DNA of 38,701 nucleotides from Shigella phage ESh8. Numbering within the stretch: the stretch's first letter is position 1; each line of letters begins with the position of its first letter. The position numbers and the translations under genes are program-made. A model generated the notes under the pieces. The model saw only the letters and a list, made by a program, of their open reading frames with translations. It made no database searches and was not told where the DNA came from. The DNA lies in sequence record ON528721; one strand, 5' to 3'. Below are positions 6,336-27,513 of the stretch, one piece after another.

Positions 6336-6354
6336 CATTACAGGAGGATTAGCA

Positions 6355-6707: not shown

Positions 6708-6756
6708 CTCAAAGCACGTAAAGATTGCACTGTATGCGATGGCTTATGGTGCATCG
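6706..6756 (+). promoter_or_regulatory. Degenerate RNase III-type hairpin (R0.5-like)
   Basis: ACTCAAAG...CACTGTATGCGATGGCTTATGG resembles the shared motif but with substitutions. Confidence 0.4.
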
Positions 6757-6878
6757 AAACGCAAGGTCAAACGCATCTTAACGAGACACCGCAAGATGAC
6801 CGCACGACAGGCTGCAAGCGCTGTCAAATGGGCTGAATTTACTCTTTACTCTTCTTACAGATAACAGGACACTGAACG

Positions 6879-7988: not shown

Positions 7989-7989
7989 T

Positions 7990-8030
7990 AGAGTCTTTTC
8001 TTACAGGTCATCATGTGGTGGCCTGAATAG
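7990..8030 (+). promoter_or_regulatory. RNase III-type hairpin upstream of gene 1 (R1-like)
   Basis: ACAGGTCATCATGTGGTGGCCTGAATAGG; stem GGTCATCA/GTGGTGGCC-like. Confidence 0.45.
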
Positions 8031-8058
8031 GAACGATTTATTCACAATGAGGTAAGCA

Positions 8059-10713
8059 ATGAACATCATCGAAACTATCGAAAAGAATGACTTCTCCGAA
8101 ATCGAACTGGCTGCTATCCCGTTCAACACGCTGGCAGACCATTACGGTAGCGCATTGGCGCGTGAACAACTGGCTTTAGAGCATGAGTCTTATGAGCTAG
8201 GCGAGCGCCGCTTCCTCAAGATGCTTGAGCGTCAAGCGAAAGCTGGTGAGATTGCAGACAACGCAGCCGCTAAGCCATTACTCGCTACGCTTCTCCCTAA
8301 GTTAACCGCACGCATCGTTGAGTGGCTCGAAGAGTACGCCTCTAAGAAAGGCCGCAAGCCTGTAGCCTATGCACCACTCCAATCACTCAAGCCGGAGGCG
8401 TCCGCGTTTATCACGCTCAAGGTCATCCTTGCGTCACTGACCAGCACGAACATGACAACAATTCAGGCCGCTGCTGGTATGCTGGGGAAAGCCATTGAGG
8501 ACGAGGTACGTTTCGGTCGCATCCGTGACCTCGAAGCGAAGCACTTCAAGAAACACGTTGAGGAACAACTCAACAAGCGCCACGGGCAAGTCTACAAGAA
8601 AGCCTTTATGCAGGTGGTTGAGGCAGACATGATTGGTCGCGGGCTGCTGGGAGGTGAGGCGTGGTCTAGCTGGGACAAGGAAACCACGATGCACGTAGGG
8701 ATTCGCCTGATTGAAATGCTCATTGAGTCCACGGGTCTGGTGGAATTGCAGCGCCACAACGCAGGTAACGCAGGCTCTGACCATGAGGCACTACAACTGG
8801 CCCAAGAGTACGTCGATGTGTTAGCGAAGCGTGCAGGCGCTCTGGCGGGCATCTCTCCGATGTTCCAGCCGTGTGTCGTACCGCCGAAACCTTGGGTATC
8901 AATCACAGGTGGCGGCTATTGGGCTAACGGTCGCAGGCCTTTGGCACTCGTTCGCACCCACTCTAAGAAGGGACTGATGCGCTATGAGGATGTTTACATG
9001 CCAGAAGTTTACAAGGCGGTCAACATCGCACAGAACACCGCATGGAAAATCAACAAGAAAGTTCTTGCGGTTGTCAATGAGATTGTGAACTGGAAGAATT
9101 GCCCGGTCGCAGACATTCCATCACTGGAGCGCCAAGAGTTACCGCCTAAGCCGGACGACATTGACACCAACGAGGCAGCACTCAAGGAGTGGAAGAAAGC
9201 CGCCGCTGGTATCTACCGCTTGGACAAGGCACGAGTGTCTCGCCGTATCAGCTTAGAGTTCATGCTGGAGCAGGCCAACAAGTTCGCAAGTAAGAAAGCA
9301 ATCTGGTTCCCTTACAACATGGACTGGCGCGGTCGTGTGTACGCTGTACCGATGTTCAACCCGCAAGGCAACGACATGACCAAGGGTCTCCTAACCCTCG
9401 CTAAAGGCAAGCCAATCGGTGAGGAAGGGTTCTACTGGCTGAAAATCCACGGTGCGAACTGTGCGGGTGTCGATAAGGTTCCATTCCCTGAGCGCATCGC
9501 GTTCATCGAGAAGCACGTAGACGACATTCTGGCTTGCGCTAAAGACCCAATCAATAACACTTGGTGGGCCGAGCAGGATTCACCTTTCTGTTTCCTCGCG
9601 TTCTGCTTCGAGTATGCAGGCGTTGCGCACCACGGTCTGAGCTACAATTGCTCTCTGCCGCTGGCGTTCGATGGGTCTTGCTCTGGTATCCAGCACTTCT
9701 CCGCGATGCTGCGCGATGAGGTAGGCGGTCGTGCGGTTAACCTTCTGCCAAGCGAAACCGTGCAGGACATTTACGGCATCGTTGCGCAGAAAGTAAACGA
9801 GATTCTCAAACAGGATGCAATCAACGGCACACCTAACGAGATGATTACCGTGACCGACAAGGACACCGGGGAAATCTCAGAGAAGCTCAAGCTGGGAACC
9901 TCAACGCTGGCGCAACAGTGGCTGGCATATGGTGTAACCCGTAGCGTGACTAAACGTTCGGTCATGACGCTGGCTTACGGTTCCAAGGAGTTCGGCTTTC
10001 GTCAACAGGTACTGGACGACACCATTCAGCCTGCGATTGACAGCGGTAAGGGCTTGATGTTCACCCAACCGAACCAAGCGGCTGGCTATATGGCTAAGCT
10101 GATTTGGGACGCGGTGAGCGTGACCGTAGTCGCAGCGGTTGAGGCGATGAACTGGCTCAAGTCTGCCGCTAAGCTGCTGGCTGCTGAGGTCAAGGACAAG
10201 AAGACCAAGGAGATTCTGCGCCACCGTTGCGCGGTTCACTGGACTACGCCGGACGGCTTCCCGGTCTGGCAGGAATACCGCAAGCCACTCCAGAAGCGTC
10301 TTGATATGATTTTCTTAGGGCAATTCCGTCTGCAACCGACGATTAATACCCTCAAGGATTCAGGCATTGACGCACACAAGCAGGAGTCTGGCATCGCGCC
10401 TAACTTTGTTCACTCACAGGACGGTAGCCACCTACGCATGACAGTCGTTTATGCTCACGAGAAGTATGGCATTGAGTCCTTTGCGCTCATCCATGACAGC
10501 TTTGGGACTATCCCGGCAGACGCTGGTAAGCTCTTTAAGGCTGTGCGTGAAACGATGGTTCTCACCTACGAGAACAACGATGTGCTGGCAGACTTCTATG
10601 ACCAGTTTGCAGACCAGCTACACGAGACCCAACTGGACAAGATGCCTCCGCTTCCGAAGAAAGGAAATCTGAACCTGCAAGACATTCTCAAGTCTGACTT
10701 TGCCTTTGCATAA
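8059..10713 (+). CDS. 1: Single-subunit DNA-dependent RNA polymerase (T3-type), 884 aa
   Basis: 884 aa (T3 RNAP length); near-identical to remembered T3 RNAP sequence; C-terminus FAFA; matches the T3-type promoters found genome-wide. Confidence 0.98.
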   Translation: MNIIETIEKNDFSEIELAAIPFNTLADHYGSALAREQLALEHESYELGERRFLKMLERQAKAGEIADNAAAKPLLATLLPKLTARIVEWLEEYASKKGRKPVAYAPLQSLKPEASAFITLKVILASLTSTNMTTIQAAAGMLGKAIEDEVRFGRIRDLEAKHFKKHVEEQLNKRHGQVYKKAFMQVVEADMIGRGLLGGEAWSSWDKETTMHVGIRLIEMLIESTGLVELQRHNAGNAGSDHEALQLAQEYVDVLAKRAGALAGISPMFQPCVVPPKPWVSITGGGYWANGRRPLALVRTHSKKGLMRYEDVYMPEVYKAVNIAQNTAWKINKKVLAVVNEIVNWKNCPVADIPSLERQELPPKPDDIDTNEAALKEWKKAAAGIYRLDKARVSRRISLEFMLEQANKFASKKAIWFPYNMDWRGRVYAVPMFNPQGNDMTKGLLTLAKGKPIGEEGFYWLKIHGANCAGVDKVPFPERIAFIEKHVDDILACAKDPINNTWWAEQDSPFCFLAFCFEYAGVAHHGLSYNCSLPLAFDGSCSGIQHFSAMLRDEVGGRAVNLLPSETVQDIYGIVAQKVNEILKQDAINGTPNEMITVTDKDTGEISEKLKLGTSTLAQQWLAYGVTRSVTKRSVMTLAYGSKEFGFRQQVLDDTIQPAIDSGKGLMFTQPNQAAGYMAKLIWDAVSVTVVAAVEAMNWLKSAAKLLAAEVKDKKTKEILRHRCAVHWTTPDGFPVWQEYRKPLQKRLDMIFLGQFRLQPTINTLKDSGIDAHKQESGIAPNFVHSQDGSHLRMTVVYAHEKYGIESFALIHDSFGTIPADAGKLFKAVRETMVLTYENNDVLADFYDQFADQLHETQLDKMPPLPKKGNLNLQDILKSDFAFA

Positions 10714-10724
10714 CAAGCACTTAG

Positions 10725-10747
10725 CATTAACCCTCACTAACGGGAGA
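10725..10747 (+). promoter_or_regulatory. T3-type phage RNAP promoter, CATTAACCCTCACTAACGGGAGA
   Basis: Consensus match with A->C at +1 region; downstream of gene 1. Confidence 0.85.
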
Positions 10748-10799
10748 CTACTTAAGGTCTCCCACTTTAAGACACTTTAGGTACTAAGAGATTAAATTT

Positions 10800-11072
10800 A
10801 TGATTAACATTAAGACTTTCTTTAAGAACATCTTTAAGTTAAACCGCTTGACTTCCGTTAAGTTCTACGCTTGGATGCCCGGTAGTGATGACCTCCGCAA
10901 GACTGAATTTAAGTTAGGCTTAGGGCCGTGCGGTAAGGTGGTCAAGAAGTTGGAATGTTACACAACGTCCTCCGGGATGGTCATCTTCCAGACCACTGAG
11001 GACAACGAAACGAAATCCTTCTACTACCCGAAAGGTTCAACGTGTGGTCGTATCGAACGGACATACAGTTAA
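10800..11072 (+). CDS. Hypothetical protein (gene 1.05-like), 90 aa
   Basis: ORF between two phage promoters; AT-rich leader; weak RBS. Confidence 0.55.
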   Translation: MINIKTFFKNIFKLNRLTSVKFYAWMPGSDDLRKTEFKLGLGPCGKVVKKLECYTTSSGMVIFQTTEDNETKSFYYPKGSTCGRIERTYS

Positions 11073-11089
11073 CCCTCACTAACGGGAGA
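11067..11089 (+). promoter_or_regulatory. T3-type phage RNAP promoter, AGTTAACCCTCACTAACGGGAGA
   Basis: Consensus core; overlaps stop codon of preceding ORF. Confidence 0.85.
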
Positions 11090-11093
11090 GTTA

Positions 11094-11130
11094 TCCTCAA
11101 GGTCATCCAAGCGGGTGGCCTTTGTGATTA
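11094..11130 (+). promoter_or_regulatory. RNase III-type hairpin (R1.1-like)
   Basis: CCTCAAGGTCATCCAAGCGGGTGGCCTTTGTGATT. Confidence 0.6.
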
Positions 11131-11164
11131 ACTTTCAATACACATCAACATGAGGTAAGATACT

Positions 11165-11305
11165 ATGCGTACCAACTTTGAGAAATTTACCAAGCGCGAT
11201 TCAGTGGTCAACGAGCATGGCGAACAGTGGCAAGAGCGCCGTGACCGCATAAAGAAACGCCACAAGCAACAGCGCGGTAACTCACAGAAACGGGAGTGGA
11301 ACTAA
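11165..11305 (+). CDS. 1.1: gp1.1-like small basic protein, 46 aa (not in ORF track, under 60 aa)
   Basis: MRTNFEKFTKRD... resembles T7 gp1.1 N-terminus; stop TAA overlaps ATG of gene 1.2. Confidence 0.75.
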   Translation: MRTNFEKFTKRDSVVNEHGEQWQERRDRIKKRHKQQRGNSQKREWN

Positions 11306-11580
11306 TGATGGGACGTATCTATAGCGGCAACCTGAACGATTACAAAGATGCGGTAGCGCGTCTACAGGAAGACCATGACGTGACCGTGAAGGTGGAGTCA
11401 TTCAGTTATGAAAACCCAGCGAAGATGTGCAGGTCATCCGGTGAGGTTCTCCGTGTGTTCACACGCTCCGGGCATCTGGTGGCATCCAGAACCTTCGAGC
11501 ACAGCGACAGTGATGTACAAATCAACGCGCAGACTGCATGGCTCCGCAAGGTTCACAGCGATTTGAAACACTGGAAGTAA
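11305..11580 (+). CDS. 1.2: gp1.2-like protein (inhibitor of host dGTPase in T7), 91 aa
   Basis: MMGRIYSGNL... and C-terminal ...DLKHWK match T7 gp1.2 (MGRLYSGNL...QLKDWK); ORF-track GTG start at 11296 rejected. Confidence 0.8.
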   Translation: MMGRIYSGNLNDYKDAVARLQEDHDVTVKVESFSYENPAKMCRSSGEVLRVFTRSGHLVASRTFEHSDSDVQINAQTAWLRKVHSDLKHWK

Positions 11581-11600
11581 TAACCCTCACTAACAGGAGA
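11578..11600 (+). promoter_or_regulatory. T3-type phage RNAP promoter, TAATAACCCTCACTAACAGGAGA
   Basis: Consensus core. Confidence 0.85.
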
Positions 11601-11637
11601 ATCCTCAAGGTCACTTTAGCGAGTGGCCTTTGTGATT
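11601..11637 (+). promoter_or_regulatory. RNase III-type hairpin (R1.3-like)
   Basis: CCTCAAGGTCACTTTAGCGAGTGGCCTTTGTGATT. Confidence 0.6.
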
Positions 11638-11674
11638 CGAACTGATTAACTTTCAACCGATGAGGAACAACCTT

Positions 11675-12691
11675 ATGAACATCTTCAAGACCAACCCATT
11701 CAAAGCTGTGTCATTCGTAGAGTCTGCCGTTAAGAAAGCGCTGGAGACCTCCGGCTACCTAATGGCTGATATCAAATATGATGGTGTGCGCGGTAACATT
11801 GTGGTTGACAACGTGGCTGAGGCCGCATGGGTGTCTCGCGTATCCAAGTTCATCCCGGCGCTGGAACACCTGAACGGTTTCGATAAGCGCTGGCAGCAAC
11901 TACTGAACGATGACCGCTGCATCTTCCCGGACGGCTTCATGCTGGATGGTGAACTGATGGTCAAAGGCGTAGACTTCAACACGGGGTCTGGCCTACTGAG
12001 AACCAAGTGGCTCAAGAAGAATAACTTCATGTTTGACCGTGGTGGTGTTGAGCCGCTGAAAGGTTCCAAAGTAGCCTTTGAGTTAGACCCCAAGCTACTC
12101 AGTGTTCGCCTGTATGCTGTCATGCCGATTCACATTGCGGAGTCTGGCGAGGACTACGATGTACAGAACCTGCTGATGCCGTATCATGTGGAAGCCATGC
12201 GCTCTCTTCTGGTTGAATACTTCCCGGAAATCGAGTGGCTTATCGCTGAGACCTACGAGGTCTACGATATGGATTCGCTGACTGAACTGTACGAAGAGAA
12301 GCGTGCCGAAGGTCACGAGGGTCTCATTGTGAAAGACCCACAAGGCATCTACAAGCGAGGCAAGAAGTCTGGCTGGTGGAAGCTCAAGCCTGAGTGTGAA
12401 GCTGACGGTATCATTCAGGGTGTCAATTGGGGAACCGAAGGGTTAGCCAACGAGGGTAAAGTGATAGGCTTTAGTGTGCTTCTTGAGACTGGTCGTTTAG
12501 TAGACGCCAACAACATCTCTCGCGCACTGATGGACGAGTTCACAGCCAACGTTAAAGCCCACGGTGAAGACTTCTACAACGGGTGGGCCTGTCAGGTCAA
12601 CTATATGGAAGAGACCCCGGACGGCTCCCTGCGTCACCCTAGCTTCGAGAAGTTCCGAGGCACTGAGGACAACCCTCAAGAGAAAATGTAA
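11675..12691 (+). CDS. 1.3: ATP-dependent DNA ligase, 338 aa from ATG 11675
   Basis: KYDGVR adenylation motif; MNIFKTNPFKAVSFVESA... matches T7 ligase; C-terminal FRGTEDNPQEKM identical to T7 ligase end. Confidence 0.95.
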   Translation: MNIFKTNPFKAVSFVESAVKKALETSGYLMADIKYDGVRGNIVVDNVAEAAWVSRVSKFIPALEHLNGFDKRWQQLLNDDRCIFPDGFMLDGELMVKGVDFNTGSGLLRTKWLKKNNFMFDRGGVEPLKGSKVAFELDPKLLSVRLYAVMPIHIAESGEDYDVQNLLMPYHVEAMRSLLVEYFPEIEWLIAETYEVYDMDSLTELYEEKRAEGHEGLIVKDPQGIYKRGKKSGWWKLKPECEADGIIQGVNWGTEGLANEGKVIGFSVLLETGRLVDANNISRALMDEFTANVKAHGEDFYNGWACQVNYMEETPDGSLRHPSFEKFRGTEDNPQEKM

Positions 12692-12701
12692 CCAACTAAC
12701 T

Positions 12702-12733
12702 GGCTCACCTTCACGGGTGGGCCTTTCTTCGTT
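12702..12733 (+). terminator. Intrinsic terminator (TE-like) ending the early operon
   Basis: 8-bp stem GGCTCACC/GGTGGGCC (one G-U) with 6-nt loop followed by TTTCTTCGTT. Confidence 0.75.
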
Positions 12734-12739
12734 CCGGGG

Positions 12740-12762
12740 AATTAACCCTCACTAACAGGAGA
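12740..12762 (+). promoter_or_regulatory. T3-type phage RNAP promoter, AATTAACCCTCACTAACAGGAGA
   Basis: Consensus match. Confidence 0.9.
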
Positions 12763-12770
12763 CACACACC

Positions 12771-12848
12771 ATGTGGCTTATCCTATTCGCTATCGTCGCA
12801 ACGCTGGGATTAATGGCTGCCGACGACAACATTTGGCCTGATTGTTAA
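12771..12848 (+). CDS. gp1.5-like tiny hydrophobic peptide, 25 aa
   Basis: ATG 9 nt after promoter +1 region; MWLILFAIVATLGLMAADDNIWPDC; T7 has a 29-aa gene 1.5 here. Confidence 0.45.
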   Translation: MWLILFAIVATLGLMAADDNIWPDC

Positions 12849-12860
12849 GGAGACAACATC

Positions 12861-13118
12861 ATGCGTTTACACTTCAACACATCAAATGGTATCTTTTCGG
12901 TTCGCCGTGAAGACCGCTCTACAGCAGTGGCCTCTGAGCGCAACGCCAAGCTGCCGCTGATTGGTTCGGTCGTCCCACTGTCGCCCCGTGTTCACCTGCT
13001 GATAACTCGTGGAGAGTTCATTAAGGCGATGAATAAAGAGCGCCCGCATCTGGAAGCCGTGGTCACTTACTGGCCTCGCATCCGTCTGTTCGTTAAGTGG
13101 ATTAAGGAGGTGCTGTAA
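12861..13118 (+). CDS. 1.6: gp1.6-like hypothetical protein, 85 aa
   Basis: RBS TAAGGAG; position and size as T7 gp1.6. Confidence 0.75.
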   Translation: MRLHFNTSNGIFSVRREDRSTAVASERNAKLPLIGSVVPLSPRVHLLITRGEFIKAMNKERPHLEAVVTYWPRIRLFVKWIKEVL

Positions 13119-13609
13119 TGTTACAACATCATTGGAACAAACCAGACTTAGAAGCCCGCTTCCCGGTTAACTCTGTTGTGCGATACTCCGGCGGTGGCCT
13201 CAAGCGTATCTTAGGGATGAGCGGAGTGGTCACTGGTCACTCGCACACAGGTCGCGTTAAGGTTCGCTTCGGTACTCAGCACGCTGAGGTTCTTCCTGAC
13301 AACCTGATTCCGCTGCCTAAAGCTGACGTTAAGACTCCGAACGTGGAAGCACCGAAGGCAGAAGTCAAGTCTGACGTGACACACCCGAACCACTACATGC
13401 TGTTCGACAACGTGGAAGCCATTGAGGTTATCGCCCGGTCAATGACCGTCGAGGCGTTCCGTGGGTACTGCCTTGGGAATATTTTGAAGTACCGCCTGCG
13501 TGCTGGCAAGAAATCCGAACTGGCAACGATGGAGAAAGACCTTAAGAAAGCGGCTTTCTATCAGGAACTGTTTGACAAACACCGGGGGCTGTGTTATGAC
13601 GCTTCGTGA
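13118..13609 (+). CDS. 1.7: gp1.7-like protein (nucleotide kinase in T7), 163 aa
   Basis: C-terminal region [43 protein letters not shown] resembles T7 gp1.7. Confidence 0.7.
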
Positions 13610-13742
13610 ATGCTGCGATTGGTGTGCCGCTAAGTGGAACCAAGCTATTGAGGATGGTGACAAGGCGGCTGCTGACGCTTACAAACAACTGTACGCGCTG
13701 TGGGAGCGGCGCTTTAAGGAGGCTCAAAGTGGAGCAACGTGA
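13596..13742 (+). CDS. 1.8: gp1.8-like protein, 48 aa
   Basis: 48 aa as T7 gp1.8; start overlaps end of 1.7. Confidence 0.6.
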
Positions 13743-13893
13743 ACAGAAATACCTTCTGACGATAGAAGGAAACACCGAGTCCTTTGAGGTTCCGGTATTC
13801 GCCCGGTCTCTCGAAGAGGCAACGCTACAGGCTGAACATTATGAGGACGCTGGGTTCGTAGTGACTCGTATCCGTCCAGAAGTGAAAGCCTAA
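13729..13893 (+). CDS. 2: Host RNA polymerase inhibitor gp2, 54 aa, GTG start
   Basis: AGGAGG 7 nt upstream of GTG 13729; ...[38 protein letters not shown] aligns with T7 gp2 ...[34 protein letters not shown]. Confidence 0.75.
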
Positions 13894-13913
13894 TTACCCT
13901 CACTAAAGGGAAC
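13891..13913 (+). promoter_or_regulatory. Variant phage RNAP promoter upstream of SSB gene, TAATTACCCTCACTAAAGGGAAC
   Basis: Core CCCTCACTAAAGGGA; same upstream variant as the phiOL-like site. Confidence 0.75.
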
Positions 13914-13945
13914 AACCCAATCATTAACCACAAAGGAGAAACATT

Positions 13946-14644
13946 ATGGCTGGTTTCAAGAAGAAAATCTACACATCTGGTCTTGGCACTGCTGAGCCTT
14001 ATGCTTACCTGAGTAAGCCGGATTATGGCAACGAAGAGCGTGGCTTCGGCAACCCTCGTGGTATCTATAAGGTAGACCTGACTCTTTCCAATAAAGACCC
14101 GCGCTGTCAGGCAATGGTCGATGAAATCGTGAAGACTCACGAAGAGGCTTATGCTGCTGCCGTGGAAGAGTTCGAGGCTAACCCGCCGCAGGCACAGCGT
14201 GGTAAGAAACCGCTGAAACCTTACGAGGGCGACATGCCGTTCTTCGATAACGGTGACGGTACGACTACCTTCAAGTTCAAATGCTATGCGTCTTTCCAAG
14301 ACAAGAAGACCAAAGAGACCAAACACATCAATCTGGTAGTGGTCGATAGCAAAGGTAAGAAGATTCAGGACGTTCCGATTATCGGTGGTGGCTCTAAGCT
14401 GAAAGTGAAATACTCTCTGGTGCCTTACAAATGGAACACAGCTGTGGGCGCAAGCGTCAAGCTACAACTGGAGTCCGTGATGCTGGTCGAACTGGCTACC
14501 TTCGGTGGTGGCGGTGAAGATGAGTGGGCCGATGAAGTCGAAGACGGTGGTTACACTGCGAGTGAATCCCGTCAGTCCCGCGATGAGCAGGAGTGGCAGG
14601 AAGACGAGCACGAAGAAACCCCGGATGAGGATGAGGATTTTTAA
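13946..14644 (+). CDS. 2.5: Single-stranded DNA-binding protein gp2.5, 232 aa
   Basis: 232 aa as T7 gp2.5; highly acidic C-terminal tail ending in F. Confidence 0.95.
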   Translation: MAGFKKKIYTSGLGTAEPYAYLSKPDYGNEERGFGNPRGIYKVDLTLSNKDPRCQAMVDEIVKTHEEAYAAAVEEFEANPPQAQRGKKPLKPYEGDMPFFDNGDGTTTFKFKCYASFQDKKTKETKHINLVVVDSKGKKIQDVPIIGGGSKLKVKYSLVPYKWNTAVGASVKLQLESVMLVELATFGGGGEDEWADEVEDGGYTASESRQSRDEQEWQEDEHEETPDEDEDF

Positions 14645-14647
14645 ACC

Positions 14648-15118
14648 ATGAACCTGCGGGAGAAACTGGAGGCTTACTCTAAAGTGTCTCCCTCTGGTTG
14701 CTGGGAGTGGCAGCGAGCCACTGCTGGGAAGGGTTATGGTTTAATATCCATAGGTCGCCAGCGTCAAGCATATGCGCACAGGGTGTCATACTTCATCTTC
14801 AACGGGCCAATTTCCGAAGGTCTTGTAGTCAGACATAAGTGTGATAACCCTTGCTGCGTTAACCCTGAGCACCTAGAAGTTGGGACTCAGGAAGACAACA
14901 TGCAGGACTGTAAGAAGCGTGGTCGTCTATCCGCGCCACCAGTAGCGAGAGGTGTACACAATCACAAGACCAAGCTGACCGATGAACAGGTGGCCTACAT
15001 TGTGAACTCCAAGAAGAGTAGCCGCGAGTTAGCCAACGAGTTTGGAGTCTCGCCGCAGGCTATAAACTGGAGGAAGAAACAATGGCAGGCTACGGCGCAA
15101 AAGGAATCCGAAAAGTAG
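14648..15118 (+). CDS. HNH-family endonuclease with C-terminal helix-turn-helix-like DNA-binding tail (putative free-standing homing endonuclease), 156 aa
   Basis: Motifs AHRVSYFIFNG...VVRHKCDNPCCVNPEHLEVGTQEDN (His-Asn-His core, Cys ligands); C-terminal LTDEQVAYIVNS..SSRELANEFGVSPQAINWRKK; overlaps start of endonuclease I gene by 37 nt. Confidence 0.8.
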   Translation: MNLREKLEAYSKVSPSGCWEWQRATAGKGYGLISIGRQRQAYAHRVSYFIFNGPISEGLVVRHKCDNPCCVNPEHLEVGTQEDNMQDCKKRGRLSAPPVARGVHNHKTKLTDEQVAYIVNSKKSSRELANEFGVSPQAINWRKKQWQATAQKESEK

Positions 15119-15531
15119 GTTCCTTCCGTTCTGGACTTGAAGATAAAGTCCACAAACAACTGGAGGCTCGTGGGGTAAAGGCTGAATATGAAATGTGGAA
15201 GATTCCATATGTTGTACCAGCCAGTAATCACACGTACCGACCAGATTTTATTTTACCCAATGGAATCATTGTCGAGACCAAGGGACTGTGGGAAGCTGAT
15301 GACCGGAAGAAGCACTTGCTAATCCGTGAGCAGTATCCTGAACTGGACATTCGTCTGGTGTTCTCTTCGAGTCGTACCAAAATATACAAAGGGTCTCCAA
15401 CTTCTTACGCCGAGTTCTGCGAGAAGAAAGGGATTCTCTTTGCCGACAAACTGATACCCGTCGAGTGGCTCAAGGAGCCTAAGCGGGACGTACCGTGGGA
15501 GAAACTAATTCGTGTAAAGGAGAAAAAGTAA
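15082..15531 (+). CDS. 3: Endonuclease I (Holliday junction resolvase) gp3, 149 aa
   Basis: 149 aa as T7 gp3; position; RBS GGAGGA. Confidence 0.9.
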   Translation: MAGYGAKGIRKVGSFRSGLEDKVHKQLEARGVKAEYEMWKIPYVVPASNHTYRPDFILPNGIIVETKGLWEADDRKKHLLIREQYPELDIRLVFSSSRTKIYKGSPTSYAEFCEKKGILFADKLIPVEWLKEPKRDVPWEKLIRVKEKK

Positions 15532-15987
15532 ATGGCTAAAGTTCAATTCAAACCACGAGCAACCACGGAGGCAATCTTTGTGCATTGCTCAGCAACCAAG
15601 CCAAGCCAGAACATTGGCGTTCGTGAGATTCGTCAGTGGCACAAAGAGCAGGGCTGGTTAGACGTAGGATATCACTTCATCATCAAGCGTGATGGCACTG
15701 TGGAAGCAGGCCGCGATGAACTGGCTGTAGGTTCCCACGTGAAAGGTTACAACCACAACTCCGTAGGCGTATGCCTCGTTGGTGGGATTGATGATAAAGG
15801 CAAGTTCGACGCCAACTTTACACCTGCGCAAATGCAAGCGCTGCGTAGTCTACTGGTCACGCTGCTGGCGAAGTATGAGGGTTCAGTCCTTCGTGCTCAC
15901 CATGACGTTGCACCCAAAGCCTGCCCGTCCTTCGACTTGAAGCGCTGGTGGGAGAAGAACGAACTGGTTACATCTGACCGAGGGTGA
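15532..15987 (+). CDS. 3.5: Lysozyme / N-acetylmuramoyl-L-alanine amidase gp3.5, 151 aa
   Basis: 151 aa; MAKVQFKPRATTEAIFVHCSATKPSQNIGVREIRQWH... matches T7 lysozyme. Confidence 0.95.
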   Translation: MAKVQFKPRATTEAIFVHCSATKPSQNIGVREIRQWHKEQGWLDVGYHFIIKRDGTVEAGRDELAVGSHVKGYNHNSVGVCLVGGIDDKGKFDANFTPAQMQALRSLLVTLLAKYEGSVLRAHHDVAPKACPSFDLKRWWEKNELVTSDRG

Positions 15988-15991
15988 TGCC

Positions 15992-16097
15992 ATGAGGATG
16001 ATTTGTATTCGCTGTGATAAGCCGTTGAAGAGTCGTGTACCGTCACGTCAGTGTCAGTGCAAAGACCCAATCAAGGCGGAGGAACACACCGAGGAAT

Positions 16098-16099
<2 letters not shown>
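15992..16099 (+). CDS. Small Cys-rich protein (gp3.7-like), 35 aa, possible zinc ribbon
   Basis: MRMICIRCDKPLKSRVPSRQCQCKDPIKAEEHTEE; CxxC plus CxC; not in ORF track (under 60 aa). Confidence 0.4.
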
Positions 16100-17916
<1,817 letters not shown>

Positions 17917-17918
<2 letters not shown>

Positions 17919-17939
17919 TTAACCCTCACTAACGGGAAC
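17917..17939 (+). promoter_or_regulatory. T3-type phage RNAP promoter, GATTAACCCTCACTAACGGGAAC
   Basis: Consensus core. Confidence 0.8.
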
Positions 17940-17965
17940 AACCATTAAACCATAGGAGACACATC

Positions 17966-18178
17966 ATGTTTAAATTCATTAACGCTTTAGGTAAGCTGGT
18001 AGTTAAACTGTATTTCATCGAAGCCAAGAAGCTGGACAAGAAAGCCAAAGCTGATTCACAGCGAGCCATTGAGTTGGCGAAACAGTCCCGTGAGAAATCC
18101 GATGCGGCTGTTAGTGGCATCCACAAGTCGGCAGCGATTGCAGCCAAAGCACAGTCCATGAGCAAATTCTTTGAGTAA
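17966..18178 (+). CDS. 4.3: gp4.3-like hypothetical protein, 70 aa
   Basis: 70 aa as T7 gp4.3; position. Confidence 0.75.
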   Translation: MFKFINALGKLVVKLYFIEAKKLDKKAKADSQRAIELAKQSREKSDAAVSGIHKSAAIAAKAQSMSKFFE

Positions 18179-18188
18179 GGAGCACACT

Positions 18189-18473
18189 ATGAGCAAGTCA
18201 ATCACCCACGCGAACACCATCCGTCTGCCAGACACCGCTGACCAGTTCTCCCGCCGAGTACACATTAATGTGCGCGGTGAGAAGGTAACGATGGTCTACC
18301 GCTGGAAAGACCACAAGTCTCCGAAAGCACACACTCAACGAATGACCTTGGATGACAAGCAGGTCGGTCGCCTGATGGGTGCCCTGACTATGGCTGCTGA
18401 CAAGGTGGTCGGTGACAACCGTGAGCGTCTGGTAGAGTTCGGCGCTGGTATGCAAGAGATTATCGAGAAGTGA
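18189..18473 (+). CDS. 4.5: gp4.5-like hypothetical protein, 94 aa
   Basis: RBS TAAGGAG before ATG 18189; position before DNA polymerase. Confidence 0.7.
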   Translation: MSKSITHANTIRLPDTADQFSRRVHINVRGEKVTMVYRWKDHKSPKAHTQRMTLDDKQVGRLMGALTMAADKVVGDNRERLVEFGAGMQEIIEK

Positions 18474-18512
18474 TAAACTCAAGGTCGCCCAAGGGTGGCC
18501 TTTATGATTATC
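18474..18512 (+). promoter_or_regulatory. RNase III-type hairpin (R4.7-like)
   Basis: ACTCAAGGTCGCCCAAGGGTGGCCTTTATGATT. Confidence 0.65.
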
Positions 18513-18540
18513 ATTTAGCACGAAACCAAAGGAGGGCATT

Positions 18541-20655
18541 ATGCTCGTAAGTGACATTGAGGCCAACAACCTCTTAGAGAAAGTCACCAAGTTTCACTGT
18601 GGCGTTATCTATGACTACCGGGATGGTGAGTATCATAGCTATCGTCCGGGCGACTTCGGGGCGTATCTGGATGCGCTGGAAGCCGAGGTGAAGCGAGGTG
18701 GGCTTATTGTTTTCCATAACGGTCACAAGTATGACGTTCCGGCTTTAGAGAAACTCGCAAAGCTGCAACTCAATCGTGACTTCAAGTTACCCCGTGAGAA
18801 TTGTATTGACACATTGGTACTCTCGCGTTTACTTCATGCGAACCTTAAAGACACAGACATGGGGCTTCTTCGTTCCGGGAAACTACCCGGTCGTCGCTTC
18901 GGGTCTCACGCTCTTGAGGCATGGGGTTATCGCTTGGGCGAGATGAAAGGTGAATACAAGGACGACTTCAAGGCTATGCTGGAAGAGCAGGGAGAAGAGT
19001 ATGTTGATGGTGCTGAGTGGGTTTCGTTCAACGAGCCGATGATGGCGTATAACGTTCAAGACGTTGTGGTCACTGTCAAGCTCTTAGAGAAATTCCTTAC
19101 AGACATCCACTACTTCCCTGCGGGTATGGACTTCACGAAGTACGATGCGGATTTATTCTGGCGTGAAGCTGGCGAATCTGTGGATATTGAACATCGTGCA
19201 GCGTGGCTTTTAGCGAAGCAGGAGCGTAACGGCTTCCCGTTCAACACCAAGGCAATTGAGGAACTTTATGTAGAACTGGCAGCGAAACGCGCTGAACTTC
19301 TGCGAAAGTTAACCGAAACGTTTGGCTCGTGGTATCAACCGAAAGGTGGTAAGGAACTCTTCAAGCACCCACGGACAGGCAAGCCGCTGCCGAGTTATCC
19401 TCGCGTGGTCTATCCGAAACAGGGTGGCGTGTACAAGAAGCCTCGTAATAAGGCACAGCGCGAAGGTCTTGAACCTTGCGACTTGGACACGAGGGACTAC
19501 ATGGAGGGTGCTCCGTATACTCCGGTAGAGTTCGTTACGTTCAAGCCAAGTAGCCGTGACCATATTCAGAAGAAACTACAGGAGGCCGGATGGGTTCCTG
19601 AGAAGTTCACCGAGAAGGGTGCGCCTGTGGTGGACGATGAGGTCTTGGAGCATGTACGAGTGGATGACCCTGAGAAGCAGGCGTGCATTGACTTGATTAA
19701 AGAGTACCTGATGATACAGAAGCGTATCGGTCAGGCGGCAGAAGGCGACAAAGCGTGGTTACGTTATGTTCAAGATGACGGTAAGATTCATGGAGCCGTT
19801 AACCCTAACGGTGCAGTTACTGGTCGTGCTACTCATAGTTTCCCAAACCTTGCACAAGTACCCGGAGTTCGTTCTCCTTACGGGGAGCAGTGTCGTAGCG
19901 CTTTTGGTGCTGAACATCATTTGGACGGGATTACTGGCAAGCCGTGGGTGCAAGCGGGGATAGACGCCAGTGGCTTAGAGTTGCGCTGTCTGGCACACTT
20001 CATGGCTCGCTTCGACAACGGAGAGTATGCGAATGAGATTCTCAACGGTGACATTCACACCAAGAACAAGAACGCTGCGGAACTCCCAACGCGAGACAAC
20101 GCCAAGACCTTCATTTACGGGTTCCTTTACGGAGCCGGAGATGAGAAGATTGGTCAGATTGTTGGGGCCGGGAAGGAGCGCGGGAAGGAACTCAAGAAGA
20201 AATTCTTAGAGAACACCCCGGCGATTGCAGCGCTACGAGAAGCTATCCAACAGTCTCTCGTTAAGTCTTCCGCTTGGATTGGCGGTGAGCAGAAAGTCCA
20301 GTGGAAACGCCGTTGGATTAAGGGTCTGGATGGTCGCAAGGTTCACGTCAGGTCTCCACACGCAGCGCTCAACACATTGTTGCAGTCTGCTGGTGCTCTG
20401 ATTTGTAAGCTGTGGATTATCAAGACCGAAGAGATGCTCATTGAGAAAGGCTTGAAGCACGGCTGGGATGGTGACTTTGCGTACATGGCTTGGGTACATG
20501 ATGAAATTCAGGTAGCTTGCCGCACAGAGCACATCGCTCAGATTGTTATTGACACCGCGCAGGAGGCTATGCGTTGGGTCGGAGAGCATTGGGCTTTCCG
20601 TTGTCGTTTAGATACCGAGGGTAAGATGGGGCCGAATTGGGCTGTCTGCCACTAA
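18541..20655 (+). CDS. 5: DNA polymerase gp5 (family A, with 3'-5' exonuclease), 704 aa
   Basis: 704 aa as T7 DNAP; near-identical blocks to remembered T7 gp5; C-terminus MGPNWAVCH. Confidence 0.98.
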   Translation: MLVSDIEANNLLEKVTKFHCGVIYDYRDGEYHSYRPGDFGAYLDALEAEVKRGGLIVFHNGHKYDVPALEKLAKLQLNRDFKLPRENCIDTLVLSRLLHANLKDTDMGLLRSGKLPGRRFGSHALEAWGYRLGEMKGEYKDDFKAMLEEQGEEYVDGAEWVSFNEPMMAYNVQDVVVTVKLLEKFLTDIHYFPAGMDFTKYDADLFWREAGESVDIEHRAAWLLAKQERNGFPFNTKAIEELYVELAAKRAELLRKLTETFGSWYQPKGGKELFKHPRTGKPLPSYPRVVYPKQGGVYKKPRNKAQREGLEPCDLDTRDYMEGAPYTPVEFVTFKPSSRDHIQKKLQEAGWVPEKFTEKGAPVVDDEVLEHVRVDDPEKQACIDLIKEYLMIQKRIGQAAEGDKAWLRYVQDDGKIHGAVNPNGAVTGRATHSFPNLAQVPGVRSPYGEQCRSAFGAEHHLDGITGKPWVQAGIDASGLELRCLAHFMARFDNGEYANEILNGDIHTKNKNAAELPTRDNAKTFIYGFLYGAGDEKIGQIVGAGKERGKELKKKFLENTPAIAALREAIQQSLVKSSAWIGGEQKVQWKRRWIKGLDGRKVHVRSPHAALNTLLQSAGALICKLWIIKTEEMLIEKGLKHGWDGDFAYMAWVHDEIQVACRTEHIAQIVIDTAQEAMRWVGEHWAFRCRLDTEGKMGPNWAVCH

Positions 20656-20674
20656 TTCTATAGGAGAAATTATT

Positions 20675-20974
20675 ATGGCTATGACCAAGAAATTTAAAGT
20701 GTCATTCGACGTTACCGCTAAGATGGCATCTGACGTTCAGGAAATCTTGGAGAAAGACATTCTGCACCTGTGTAAGCAGGTTGGCTCAGGCGCTATTGTC
20801 CCCACTGGTAAACAGAAAGAGATGATTGTCCAGTTCCTGACGTATGGCATGGAGGGGCTGATGGCCTTCCTTGTGCGAACGTCTTTCCGTGAGGCCATCA
20901 AAGATATGCACGAAGAGTATGCCGATAAGGACAGCTTCAAGCTGTCTCCCGCTACTGTACGGGAGGTGTTCTAA
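20675..20974 (+). CDS. 5.5: gp5.5 (H-NS-binding protein in T7), 99 aa
   Basis: MAMTKKFKVSFDVTAKM... nearly identical to T7 gp5.5. Confidence 0.9.
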   Translation: MAMTKKFKVSFDVTAKMASDVQEILEKDILHLCKQVGSGAIVPTGKQKEMIVQFLTYGMEGLMAFLVRTSFREAIKDMHEEYADKDSFKLSPATVREVF

Positions 20975-21183
20975 TGAGTGAATACCTGAAAGTGCTGGCA
21001 GCTATCAAAGGTTGCCCTAAGTCCTTTCAGTCGAACTATGTGCGAAACAATGCGGCTCTCGTGGCTGAGGCCGCTTCTCGTGGACACATTAGCTGTTTGA
21101 CTGTGGGCGGTCGTAATGGTGGAGCATGGGAGGTCACAGCCTCTGGTGTGCGCTTCCTGAAACGAATGGGAGGTTGCGTATGA
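20974..21183 (+). CDS. 5.7: gp5.7-like protein, 69 aa
   Basis: 69 aa as T7 gp5.7; ATGA overlap with 5.5 stop. Confidence 0.8.
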   Translation: MSEYLKVLAAIKGCPKSFQSNYVRNNAALVAEAASRGHISCLTVGGRNGGAWEVTASGVRFLKRMGGCV

Positions 21184-21362
21184 TTATGCCTAAGAGTGAC
21201 ACCGTAACGATGACCCGTGATGCGTGGAACGATGTTAGCGCGTACATTGATAAGCTGGAGAAAGACCTAGAGTTCCTGAATGCGCTTAAGGCGTGTGGTG
21301 TGGATAATTGGGACGGATACTCTGATGCAGTCGAAATGGTTTACGGGGAGGATGACGAATGA
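21180..21362 (+). CDS. 5.9: gp5.9-like acidic protein (RecBCD inhibitor in T7), 60 aa
   Basis: RBS GGGAGG; acidic, ends ...GEDDE; position before exonuclease gene. Confidence 0.7.
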   Translation: MIMPKSDTVTMTRDAWNDVSAYIDKLEKDLEFLNALKACGVDNWDGYSDAVEMVYGEDDE

Positions 21363-22270
21363 GCCTAATCACATTGAAAGACTTCGCGGAGATGCGTGAA
21401 GGTAAGCCTATGGAGAAGGGAGTGCTGGTCATGGATGGTGACTGGTTGGTATATCAGTCAATGGCTGCTGCCGAAGTTGAGACGGATTGGGGAGACGACA
21501 TTTGGACTCTTGAGTGTGACCACGCTAAGGCACGGAGCATTCTCGATTCTGCAATCGAATCGTACCGAACCCGTAAGAAGGCTTGGAGTGACGCTATGGT
21601 TGTTCTGGCGTATACCGACGATGTGAACTGGCGTAAGGTATTGGTTGATGAGACCTATAAGGAGAACCGTAAGGCGACCCGTAAACCTGTGGGCTACCGT
21701 GACTTCTTAGCGAAGCTGTGGGAGCGCGATGAGTTCATTCACATCAAAGAGGACATGCTGGAGGGTGATGACGTTATGGGAATCATTGGGTCTGGTCACG
21801 AGGTCTTCGGCTTCAAGAAGGCTGTGTTGGTCTCCTGTGACAAGGACTTCAAGACTATCCCGGACGTTGACTTCCTGTGGTGTACCACTGGCAACATCTT
21901 GACGCAGACCAAAGAGACCGCTGATTGGTGGCATCTCTTCCAGACCATCAAGGGTGATATGACTGATGGCTACTCCGGGATTCCCGGCTGGGGCGATACA
22001 GCAGAAGGTTTCCTGAATGACCCGTTCATTGTGGAGCCTGTAGAGTCCGTGTTGAAGTCTGGTAAGAACAAGGGGCAGACAGTAACCAAGTGGGTGAAGC
22101 GTGCTCCTGATGCGACTGAGACGCTGTGGGACTGCATTAAATCCATTGGTGCCAAAGCTGGGATGACCGAGCAGGAAATCATCAAGCAAGGCCAGATGGC
22201 TCGCATTCTTCGCTTCGAGGAATACAATTACATTGACAAGGAGATTTACTTATGGACGCCGCAAAGCTGA
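21359..22270 (+). CDS. 6: 5'-3' exonuclease gp6, 303 aa
   Basis: [11 protein letters not shown]..., ...[24 protein letters not shown]...[27 protein letters not shown] match T7 gp6. Confidence 0.95.
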
Positions 22271-22365
22271 TTACCATCGCTGTGCTGGTAGGTATGCTGG
22301 CGCGAGGTCTCTGGATGTTCGCTCTCATAGTCCGAGATGTGAAGCGAGACTCCGAGATTAAGTGA
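22252..22365 (+). CDS. 6.3: gp6.3-like small membrane peptide, 37 aa
   Basis: 37 aa as T7 gp6.3; hydrophobic; not in ORF track (under 60 aa). Confidence 0.6.
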
Positions 22366-22425
22366 TAAACTCAAGGCTCTCTGTATTAACCCTCACTAAA
22401 GGGAAGAGGGAGCCTTTATGATTAT
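22366..22425 (+). promoter_or_regulatory. RNase III-type hairpin (R6.5-like) with a phage promoter (22384..22406, TATTAACCCTCACTAAAGGGAAG) in its loop
   Basis: ACTCAAGGCTCTCT...promoter...AGGGAGCCTTTATGATT; flanks pair CTCTC/AGGGAG. Confidence 0.75.
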
Positions 22426-22457
22426 TACTTTAAGACTTAACCTTAAGAGGTGAAATT

Positions 22458-22703
22458 ATGTTACAACCAATTAATCATGTTTTAACTCATCCAGATGATA
22501 TTCCTAGTATGCCTCGTGCAGCTAAAGAGTATCTACAGGTGCGCTTCAATCAGGCCTATGTGATGGAGTCCGGGGAGTACCGTGCGCTCCGCGCTGCGGG
22601 TTACTCTGAGTCTTTCATTGCTGGTGTGATGCATGGTCTGTACCTTGCCTCTCGAACACTTGATGAGATTGAGGTGCGTAAAGAGCAACTGAGACAGGAG
22701 TAA
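22458..22703 (+). CDS. 6.5: gp6.5-like hypothetical protein, 81 aa
   Basis: Position and size as T7 gp6.5. Confidence 0.75.
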   Translation: MLQPINHVLTHPDDIPSMPRAAKEYLQVRFNQAYVMESGEYRALRAAGYSESFIAGVMHGLYLASRTLDEIEVRKEQLRQE

Positions 22704-22707
22704 TTAT

Positions 22708-22959
22708 ATGTGCTGGAAACCGAAGGTGAAAGTCCCTAAGATGGACACTAACCAGATTCGCGCTGCCGAACCAGCACCTTTGACTGAGCCACCGAAATCT
22801 GTGGTATGGGGAGGCGATGACGATGAGGACACCAGCGTGTCTTCCTCTGAGGTGCCAACCTCACCGAGCAGCGGTAAGAGCAGTCTCAAGGTAAAGCTGG
22901 ATGACAGCGCAGCCAAGAACAAGAGTAAATCCTCCATTCGCTCCAAGGCGTTTGGGTAA
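22708..22959 (+). CDS. 6.7: gp6.7-like virion protein, 83 aa
   Basis: Position and size as T7 gp6.7; Ser/acidic-rich. Confidence 0.75.
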   Translation: MCWKPKVKVPKMDTNQIRAAEPAPLTEPPKSVVWGGDDDEDTSVSSSEVPTSPSSGKSSLKVKLDDSAAKNKSKSSIRSKAFG

Positions 22960-22986
22960 CTGAGTCATAGCATAGGGAGAAACATC

Positions 22987-23307
22987 ATGGGATTCTTCAA
23001 GAAAATCAAGAAGGCTGTTAAGAAAGTTGTGAAGGAAGTTAGCAGACCAGTCGAGAAGGCAGGTAAGGAAGTTGGTAAGGTTGTTGGAGGCGCGCTGGGT
23101 GCAGGTAAGCAGGAGATTATCCAACAAGAGGCTCCAGCACCAGTAGTAGCTGCACCGCCACCAGCACAGATTGTAGACGTACCTGAACAGGATAAGGCTG
23201 AGGGCGAGGATGAGGCGCAAACCGAGAGCGCACGTAAGAAGGCACGCGCTGGCGGTAAGAAAGCACTTAGCGTAGCTCGCAGTTCCGGCGGTGGAATCAA
23301 TATCTGA
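22987..23307 (+). CDS. 7.3: gp7.3-like tail/host-range protein, 106 aa
   Basis: Lys/Ala-rich with Pro/Ala stretch; position before portal gene. Confidence 0.75.
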   Translation: MGFFKKIKKAVKKVVKEVSRPVEKAGKEVGKVVGGALGAGKQEIIQQEAPAPVVAAPPPAQIVDVPEQDKAEGEDEAQTESARKKARAGGKKALSVARSSGGGINI

Positions 23308-23317
23308 GGAGGACTGA

Positions 23318-24925
23318 ATGGCTGATTCAAAACGTACAGGATTGGGCGAAGACGGTGCTAAAGCTACCTATGACCGCCTGACGAACGACCGTAGAGCCTA
23401 TGAGACTCGTGCGGAAAACTGTGCGCAATACACCATTCCGTCCTTGTTCCCGAAGGAGTCCGATAACGAATCTACCGACTACACGACTCCGTGGCAGGCT
23501 GTAGGTGCGCGGGGTCTTAACAATCTGGCCTCTAAGTTAATGCTTGCGTTATTCCCGATGCAGTCGTGGATGAAGCTGACCATTAGCGAATATGAGGCGA
23601 AGCAGCTTGTTGGAGACCCTGATGGACTCGCTAAGGTGGACGAAGGTCTGTCTATGGTTGAGCGTATTATCATGAATTATATCGAATCCAACAGCTACCG
23701 TGTGACGCTCTTTGAGTGCCTCAAGCAGTTGATCGTGGCAGGTAATGCACTGCTTTACTTACCGGAACCCGAAGGTAGCTACAATCCGATGAAGCTGTAC
23801 CGATTGTCTTCTTATGTTGTCCAAAGAGACGCATACGGCAATGTGTTACAGATTGTCACTCGTGACCAGATAGCCTTTGGTGCTCTCCCGGAAGACGTTC
23901 GGTCTGCGGTAGAGAAAGCTGGTGGTGAGAAGAAGATGGACGAAATGGTCGATGTGTACACCCATGTGTATCTCGATGAAGAGTCCGGCGATTACCTCAA
24001 GTACGAGGAAGTAGAGGACGTTGAGATTGATGGCTCCGATGCCACCTATCCGACTGACGCTATGCCCTACATTCCGGTTCGCATGGTTCGCATTGATGGC
24101 GAGTCTTACGGTCGCTCCTACTGTGAAGAATACTTAGGTGACTTAAGGTCTCTTGAGAATCTCCAAGAGGCTATCGTTAAGATGAGCATGATTAGTGCGA
24201 AGGTCATCGGTCTGGTGAACCCGGCTGGAATCACGCAGCCACGTAGATTAACCAAAGCTCAGACTGGTGACTTCGTTCCCGGTCGTCGAGAAGACATTGA
24301 CTTCCTGCAACTGGAGAAGCAAGCTGACTTTACCGTAGCGAAAGCTGTGAGTGACCAGATAGAAGCACGCTTATCGTATGCCTTTATGTTGAACTCTGCG
24401 GTGCAACGAACAGGTGAACGTGTGACCGCCGAAGAGATTCGATACGTTGCGTCAGAACTGGAAGATACGCTTGGTGGTGTCTATTCGATTCTGTCTCAAG
24501 AACTGCAATTGCCTCTGGTTCGTGTGCTCTTGAAGCAACTCCAAGCAACCTCGCAGATTCCTGAGCTACCGAAAGAAGCCGTTGAGCCGACTATCAGCAC
24601 AGGTCTGGAAGCAATCGGGCGTGGTCAAGACCTCGATAAGCTGGAGCGCTGTATCTCCGCTTGGGCTGCTCTGGCTCCTATGCAGGGAGACCCGGACATT
24701 AACCTTGCTGTCATTAAGCTGCGCATTGCTAACGCCATTGGTATTGATACTTCTGGTATCCTACTGACGGACGAGCAGAAGCAAGCACTGATGATGCAGG
24801 ATGCGGCCCAAACAGGTATCGAGAACGCTGCCGCCACTGGTGGGGCTGGTGTGGGTGCTCTAGCGACCTCAAGTCCAGAAGCTATGCAGGGTGCAGCAGC
24901 ACAGGCTGGCCTAGACGCCACCTAA
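23318..24925 (+). CDS. 8: Portal (head-tail connector) protein gp8, 535 aa
   Basis: 535 aa (T7 gp8 536 aa); position; strong RBS GAGGAGG. Confidence 0.95.
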   Translation: MADSKRTGLGEDGAKATYDRLTNDRRAYETRAENCAQYTIPSLFPKESDNESTDYTTPWQAVGARGLNNLASKLMLALFPMQSWMKLTISEYEAKQLVGDPDGLAKVDEGLSMVERIIMNYIESNSYRVTLFECLKQLIVAGNALLYLPEPEGSYNPMKLYRLSSYVVQRDAYGNVLQIVTRDQIAFGALPEDVRSAVEKAGGEKKMDEMVDVYTHVYLDEESGDYLKYEEVEDVEIDGSDATYPTDAMPYIPVRMVRIDGESYGRSYCEEYLGDLRSLENLQEAIVKMSMISAKVIGLVNPAGITQPRRLTKAQTGDFVPGRREDIDFLQLEKQADFTVAKAVSDQIEARLSYAFMLNSAVQRTGERVTAEEIRYVASELEDTLGGVYSILSQELQLPLVRVLLKQLQATSQIPELPKEAVEPTISTGLEAIGRGQDLDKLERCISAWAALAPMQGDPDINLAVIKLRIANAIGIDTSGILLTDEQKQALMMQDAAQTGIENAAATGGAGVGALATSSPEAMQGAAAQAGLDAT

Positions 24926-24945
24926 TAACCCTCACTAAAGGGAGA
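24923..24945 (+). promoter_or_regulatory. T3-type phage RNAP promoter, TAATAACCCTCACTAAAGGGAGA
   Basis: Consensus; overlaps portal stop codon. Confidence 0.9.
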
Positions 24946-25026
24946 CCTCATCTTTGAAATGAGCGATGACTAAAGGTTGGAGTCCTTTGGTTTCCCTTTA
25001 TCTTTAACAACTTAGGAGATTTAACA

Positions 25027-27512: not shown

Positions 27513-27513
27513 C

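Follow-up and report, generated by a model that had tools for sequence, protein, structure and literature searches.

Gene 3.7 of Shigella phage ESh8: a conserved 35-residue protein of T3-like phages with four invariant cysteines

The window that we analysed, namely the whole 38,701-nucleotide stretch of Shigella phage ESh8 (sequence record ON528721), carries an open reading frame of 35 codons between the genes for the lysozyme and the primase-helicase. That frame, which we call gene 3.7 on the grounds given below, begins with the ATG at 15992, ends with the TAA at 16097-16099, and is translated into MRMICIRCDKPLKSRVPSRQCQCKDPIKAEEHTEE (Table 1). The initial annotation had described a cysteine-rich mini-protein of 35 aa following the lysozyme gene and containing a CxxC and a CxC pair; the frame and the translation were as described, and the two pairs were located at C5/C8 and C21/C23, respectively. 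The lysozyme gene terminates with the TGA at 15985-15987, leaving a gap of 4 nt before the ATG of gene 3.7, and the GAGG core of the Shine-Dalgarno sequence ends 8 nt ahead of that ATG. Neither the GAGGG nor its spacing varies in any of the relatives, whereas the intervening lysozyme stop codon can be TGA, TAA, or TAG; the same element is carried as an RBS in the annotations of the phages Patroon and LL2.

On its 3' side, gene 3.7 runs into a 23-bp phage RNA-polymerase promoter, whose core matches perfectly and whose transcription start is the G at 16115; sites with up to 2 mismatches to the 13-nt core occur 13 times on the plus strand of the window versus an expectation of 0.8. The frame had been said to end one nucleotide inside the gene 4 promoter, which overlap is indeed present, but amounts to 2 nt when the promoter limits of the T3 and phiSG-JL2 records are used (CDS end 2068, promoter start 2067), a trivial difference. 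Beyond the transcription start, the RNA can fold into a hairpin of -14.9 kcal/mol, with a z-score of only -1.1, so that the fold by itself is not significant. By analogy with the processing role known from T7, the upstream mRNAs in which gene 3.7 is contained probably have their 3' end at that hairpin (R3.8). A minus-strand ORF of 57 aa (15897..16070) that overlaps gene 3.7 was set aside, since to our knowledge the genes of this phage group all lie on one strand and since the substitutions described below suit the plus-strand frame.

Table 1. Features at the gene 3.7 locus of phage ESh8, with positions in the window
Feature	Position	Strand	Basis or remark
Gene 3.5, N-acetylmuramoyl-L-alanine amidase (lysozyme)	15532..15987	+	Pfam Amidase_2, E 1e-16; 3.5/amidase in the T3 and phiSG-JL2 records
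Shine-Dalgarno GAGGG for gene 3.7	15980..15984	+	Sequence; inside the lysozyme coding end
Gene 3.7 CDS	15992..16099	+	35 aa plus stop; Cys5, Cys8, Cys21, Cys23
T3-type phage RNA polymerase promoter AATTAACACTCACTAAAGGGAGA (phi3.8 in T3 records), drives gene 4	16098..16120	+	Pattern search; T3 and phiSG-JL2 promoters in the same place
12-bp hairpin AAAGGGAGACUU/AACGGUUUCCCUUU, RNase III site R3.8 in relatives	16111..16138	+	RNA fold; stem_loop features in T3 and phiSG-JL2
Gene 4A primase-helicase, downstream neighbour	16166..17866	+	Pfam Helic-prim_T7_N, DnaB_C, Toprim

With respect to the wider genome, the window (1..38701) apparently corresponds to a whole T3-like genome circularly permuted relative to the standard map, with the late genes first, which permutation places gene 3.7 at 16.0 kb instead of at the about 10.5-11.5 kb of T3 and phiSG-JL2. 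A 587-aa ORF at 2183..3946 resembles the large terminase and the RNA polymerase occupies 8059..10713, the gene assignments in ESh8 away from gene 3.7 being founded on size and order only. Between gene 2.5 (SSB, 13946..14644) and gene 3 (endonuclease I, 15082..15531) there is an HNH_3 homing-endonuclease ORF of 156 aa (14648..15118, plus strand; Pfam PF13392, E 7e-14, with zf-His_Me_endon below the cutoff) that shares 37 nt with the beginning of gene 3. T3 and phiSG-JL2 are without that ORF, gene 3 beginning in those phages where gene 2.5 ends; and we consider it probably a mobile insertion.

The ESh8 protein is 100% identical to the gp3.7 of phiYeO3-12 (CAB63607) and of phiSG-JL2, and coincides in 34 of its 35 residues with the product of T3 gene 3.7 (UniProt Y37_BPT3; GenBank CAA35134), E35K being the sole difference. 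The corresponding ORF is annotated as "gp3.7" in phiSG-JL2 and as the CDS "3.7" in the T3 record X17255; and an exact-sequence look-up placed the ESh8 protein in one cluster with the "3.7 protein [Yersinia phage phiYeO3-12]" and the "Uncharacterized gene 3.7 protein" Y37_BPT3. The protein also matched PHROG 17413 ("unknown function") with an E of 4.1e-29, residues 1-35 aligning to profile positions 1-35. The succession of gene 3.5, gene 3.7, the phi3.8 promoter with the R3.8 hairpin, and gene 4 is identical to the annotated maps of T3 and phiSG-JL2; and a megablast of the region returned 326 phage records, those with more than 90% identity being T3-like phages (Teetrevirus) from Klebsiella, Enterobacter, Citrobacter, Salmonella, Yersinia, Serratia, and E. 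coli. Judged by its sequence and map position, the ESh8 ORF is the T3-group (genus Teetrevirus) gene 3.7, already known as an annotated ORF: the genes of T3, phiYeO3-12, and phiSG-JL2 are the same gene in the same position, without any substantive difference. As a gene call, the ESh8 ORF consequently adds nothing new, in that the X17255 annotation, the UniProt entry, and the PHROG already exist. Within the searchable literature we found no report that assigns a function to gp3.7 or demonstrates either its translation or its binding of metal; the "gp3.7" in a paper on a Citrobacter phage is an unrelated, 70-aa protein of the Dev2 type. About one in two of the T3-like records listed from GenBank and RefSeq, including the RefSeq entry for T3 (NC_047864), has no annotation at the gene 3.7 match, and two annotators place the start of the gene at Met3 (33 aa). 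Automated annotation routinely misses this conserved gene.

The length of the frame is in itself unremarkable, an open frame of 35 codons being expected by chance with a P of about 0.18 from the base composition; what is unusual here is the occurrence of four cysteines among 35 residues (P about 2e-4 at the genome's cysteine frequency of 0.8%). We therefore accept gene 3.7 as real on the evidence of its conservation and not of its length. In a tblastn search gp3.7 was recovered from 101 phage records, every alignment extending over 80% or more of the protein with an identity of 88-100%; conservation across T3-like genomes had been proposed as a check on the ORF, and the frame was found to be intact in 101 of 101 records and interrupted in none. 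At the DNA level, most of the carriers are more than 90% identical, the identity of the gene dropping to 90.7% in T3 and its closest kin.

When 16 sequences of the gene were aligned codon by codon, 15 of the 21 variable sites fell at third codon positions (P = 4e-4) and 13 of the 21 were synonymous; in the remaining two frames, both of which contain stops, 17 of the 21 changes would be non-synonymous. ESh8 and T3 differ by nine synonymous changes and one non-synonymous change (dS 0.73, dN 0.012), which counts correspond to a dN/dS of 0.016, as compared with 0.028 for the lysozyme; given the 19.3 synonymous and 85.7 non-synonymous sites, the binomial probability of at least nine synonymous changes out of ten is 2e-6. 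Over nine pairwise comparisons, the dN/dS of gene 3.7 ranged from 0.016 to 0.12. The replacements in the sequenced phages affect residues 17, 20, 22, 25, 30, and 33-35, with residues 4-16 and the cysteines untouched; the database variants add replacements at residues 2, 3, and 6, and none at a cysteine. These patterns of substitution argue that purifying selection is preserving both the protein sequence of gp3.7 and its four cysteines, and that gene 3.7 is a genuine small gene, which we regard as very probably translated. Two variants stand apart. A metagenomic copy (L112) bears an R15C replacement that creates a fifth cysteine, the four original ones being untouched; and in a Logan contig of 1193 nt (P0012) the stop of gene 3.7 is lost, so that the frame reads through the promoter to give a 44-aa product ending in HTEEQLTLTKGMT. 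Either variant may be genuine or may stem from faulty assembly.

With phmmer, an exhaustive comparison of gp3.7 with 1.84 billion representative proteins returned two clusters (at 50%), that of gp3.7 itself and one consisting of a single protein of 36 aa, MAKMICLKCGLALKSKVVTKQCSCKEPIKAEVTTKD, with an E of 3e-5. The latter is encoded in a 2-kb Logan assembly of metagenomic origin that comprises the end of a lysozyme gene, the ORF and its GAGG-type RBS, a T7-type promoter, and a primase; the TAA stop of the ORF doubles as the first bases of the promoter, as it does in ESh8. The closest relatives of that contig are the Teetrevirus phages, with which its DNA is about 75% identical. Between the two lineages the lysozymes are 87% and the primases 82% identical, versus 53% (about 53-55%) for gp3.7, which protein, according to those identities, evolves faster than either of its neighbours; the DNA of gene 3.7 is about 59% identical to that of the homologous ORF (64 of 108 positions). 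Retained in the homologue are all four cysteines, L12-K13-S14, V16, Q20, K24-x-P26-I27-K28-A29-E30, and six basic positions, from which comparison a conserved, basic core emerges of the form MIC-x2-C-x3-LKS-x-V-x3-QC-x-CK-x-PIKAE. Variation in gp3.7 is greatest in the acidic tail AEEHTEE, whose counterpart in the homologue is not acidic; that tail is accordingly unlikely to be the functional core.

Beyond the T3-like copies and that homologue, the searches were negative. When degenerate DNA patterns combining the cysteine spacing with CKxPIK were scanned against viral, metagenome, and bacterial-genome collections, the true matches were confined to T3-like contigs and no bacterial or prophage homologue appeared; the remaining matches, 14 from metagenomes and 4 from bacterial genomes, either contained stops or were unrelated. 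A tblastn of the homologue against 50,697 phage records recovered only the same 101 Teetrevirus records. Within the window, comparison of the family profile with the six-frame translation disclosed no paralogue (the next best E being 0.31); the zinc domain of the primase and the zinc loop of the HNH protein, considered as candidate paralogues, exhibited no similarity in that search. As far as these searches reach, the family is very narrow and shallow, with the evidence for its conservation coming mostly from closely related genomes.

A rival explanation is that the frame is open by chance in non-coding DNA, the conservation then reflecting either close kinship or a constraint on the DNA itself, such as a promoter element or a cis site. 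The about 18% expectation for 35 open codons, the more than 90% DNA identity of most carriers, and the failure of about half of the GenBank annotators to call the gene are all compatible with that view, but it does not account for the three-base periodicity and the excess of synonymous changes, both specific to the frame of gene 3.7, or for the conserved Shine-Dalgarno sequence. Moreover, in the divergent homologue the frame is still open, the length is maintained at 36 aa, and no cysteine is missing; and T7-like promoters situated directly after the lysozyme stop imply that no upstream DNA element is needed. We consequently hold a chance frame to be very improbable.

The region that separates the phi3.8 promoter from the lysozyme stop differs among the relatives outside the T3 group, which are devoid of gene 3.7. 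In T7-like and Berlinvirus-like loci the promoter starts at the lysozyme stop, and most of those loci have no ORF in the slot; in some K11-like and other loci, the slot is filled by unrelated hydrophobic mini-ORFs. Loci with such an ORF include L009:1960-2046, L082:1961-2053, L064, and L031:1958-2056, together with L032, L041, L044, L065, L068, and L069. One of the hydrophobic slot peptides, MIIHEMGLYDLIYHLAFLLAMVYVLTRN, of 28-30 aa, is conserved among loci with lysozymes of 92% and 73% identity to the ESh8 enzyme; another, M[VIL]TQALIIFGLPILIVGTLYCINKEWFSDGQE, of 32 aa, occurs in at least 8 K11-like loci. Such variety suggests that the slot is a hot spot at which mini-genes can replace one another. 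On the other side of the phi3.8 promoter, before the primase, an extra ORF is present in Klebsiella phage NL_ZS_3 (L085:834-1175) and, in an HNH-like form, in a second locus (L009:2279-2593), which position is that of gene 3.8 in T7; ESh8 has none there, the gap measuring only 45 nt.

The existence of unrelated occupants, or of none, in other lineages would suit a quite different role for gene 3.7, in which translation itself were what mattered: the short frame would keep ribosomes between the lysozyme gene and R3.8, thus protecting the message or tuning the 3' end of the lysozyme mRNA, or would simply space the promoter, with the peptide being incidental. The tight packing of the ORF, 4 nt after the lysozyme stop, with a 2-nt promoter overlap and the hairpin beyond, is likewise what such a role would lead one to expect. 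The peptide, however, is under strong purifying selection (the dN/dS of 0.016, with 9 of the 10 differences from T3 synonymous), and the four cysteines along with the LKS and CKxPIKAE motifs persist at 53% protein and about 59% DNA identity, which features a pure spacer would not keep; we accordingly judge that explanation improbable, and continue to regard the protein as the object of selection.

As to what that protein might be, none of the cysteines C5, C8, C21, and C23 varies among 14 distinct sequences, the divergent homologue included, and the four form two pairs separated by a 12-residue spacer. Two close cysteine pairs about 12 residues apart are the commonest signature of structural zinc sites. 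The pairs had been read as suggestive of a zinc ribbon, which reading is borne out with respect to the four invariant cysteines in two pairs, but not in any match to a curated profile or a solved zinc-ribbon structure: against Pfam, NCBIfam, and PADLOC, gp3.7 hit neither a zinc-ribbon nor any other family; the profile of its family matched no PDB sequence at E<=10; and the comparison with solved and predicted folds was equally without a match. An AlphaFold2 model from an 11-sequence alignment, of mediocre confidence (pLDDT 69, pTM 0.32), contained a short helical turn and a single beta-bridge, between residues 3-4 and 11-12, which encloses the CxxC pair only.

Gp3.7 resembles the classical zinc ribbons and knuckles, such as the domain of the primase gp4, in having four cysteines arranged as two close pairs, and resembles the zinc knuckle in that its CxxC is flanked by a predicted beta-bridge; the neighbouring gp4 bears an N-terminal Cys4 zinc-binding domain of this class (Pfam Zn_Ribbon_Prim). 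It differs from the classical ribbon in that the second pair is an atypical CxC and that the spacer is only 12 residues long. Taking the sequence evidence together, we find the zinc-ribbon reading plausible, and a Zn(Cys)4 site in gp3.7 slightly favoured over its absence.

The cysteines of a real protein could alternatively serve something other than a structural Zn(Cys)4 site, e.g., disulfides, another metal, an Fe-S-like centre, or a redox or covalently reactive function, without any ribbon or knuckle fold. The atypical CxC, the lack of a match to a zinc-ribbon family or fold, and the only moderately confident AlphaFold2 model would be in keeping with such chemistry. Since gp3.7 has neither a signal peptide nor a hydrophobic segment, the protein is by default assigned to the cytoplasm, an environment unfavourable to disulfides; and the four invariant cysteines, grouped as two close pairs with about 12 residues between them, bear the commonest signature of a structural zinc site, with the first pair lying at the predicted hairpin turn. 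A non-zinc function of the cysteines thus seems unlikely.

We also considered whether gp3.7 might be a mimic or a relative of the ribosomal protein bL36 that acts on the ribosome. The bL36 of E. coli is a basic protein of about 37 aa with a Cys-x2-Cys-x12-Cys arrangement, and gp3.7 is similar in length, charge, and C-x2-C-x12-C spacing, a likeness that we treat as a lead only. BLASTP of gp3.7 against E. coli bL36, however, yielded no alignment at E<=100; no PDB sequence matched at E<=10, despite the many ribosome structures in that database; and the Pfam family Ribosomal_L36 was not matched. The ligand set of bL36, C-x2-C-x12-C-x5-H, is furthermore not reproduced at its fourth position, where gp3.7 has a Cys at +2 versus a His at +6 in bL36; and His32 of gp3.7 is not conserved in the divergent homologue. 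At the sequence level the resemblance to bL36 is therefore rejected, and we give scarcely any credence to an action on the ribosome of that kind.

The reading that we prefer, with a probability of about 0.7 for the whole of it, is that gene 3.7 is a genuine, translated accessory gene whose product would be a small, basic, metal-binding Cys4 protein that acts as a binder in the middle period of infection. Transcription would take place in the middle period, that of the class II genes of DNA metabolism, and gene 3.7 would be the last cistron of messages that are initiated from phi2.5 (promoter core near 13901) or from a promoter ahead of it and are then cleaved at R3.8, the hairpin immediately after the gene. 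With only 4 nt between the lysozyme stop and the ATG, ribosomes that finish the lysozyme could re-initiate on gene 3.7, so that the two genes may be translationally coupled. The product would be too small for an enzyme. Most likely, it is predicted to fold around one Zn2+ through Cys5, Cys8, Cys21, and Cys23 into a compact, zinc-knuckle-like mini-domain whose core, with the six basic positions common to both lineages, would have a net positive charge; and it would then act stoichiometrically, by binding either nucleic acid or an acidic surface on a protein of the host or the phage. For any particular target we have at best a weak preference. The gene is probably dispensable in the laboratory, since T7 and the Berlinvirus-like and K11-like relatives are without such a gene.

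A more specific and more speculative version would combine that prediction with the variable slot: gp3.7 would be one occupant of an undescribed slot for unrelated genes of 28-36 aa, and would be a zinc-knuckle effector directed against a nucleic-acid machine (the replisome, the RNA polymerase, or the ribosome) or against a host defence. We consider that version doubtful; if true, it would explain why strong selection on gp3.7 is seen in T3-like phages only.

Precedents for small binders exist within the T7 group, where gp2, of 64 aa in T7, inhibits the RNA polymerase and gp0.4 inhibits FtsZ. Like gp3.7, those host-takeover proteins are very small, non-enzymatic, variable among lineages, encoded by class I or II genes, and presumed to bind stoichiometrically; they differ from it in not being cysteine-rich and in having no sequence relationship to it.

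What this analysis contributes to the knowledge of gene 3.7 is modest, consisting in a quantification of purifying selection, a divergent homologue that defines the motif, the variable slot, and the genomes that omit the gene. The homologue MAKMICLKCGLALKSKVVTKQCSCKEPIKAEVTTKD and the variable slot together furnish a conserved motif and a comparative frame within which gp3.7, which ranks among the smallest proteins conserved in a model group of phages, can be tested; and were gp3.7 to prove a zinc-knuckle protein that specifically inhibits some machine of the host or of the phage, it would be a further member of the useful group of tiny binders that phages encode.
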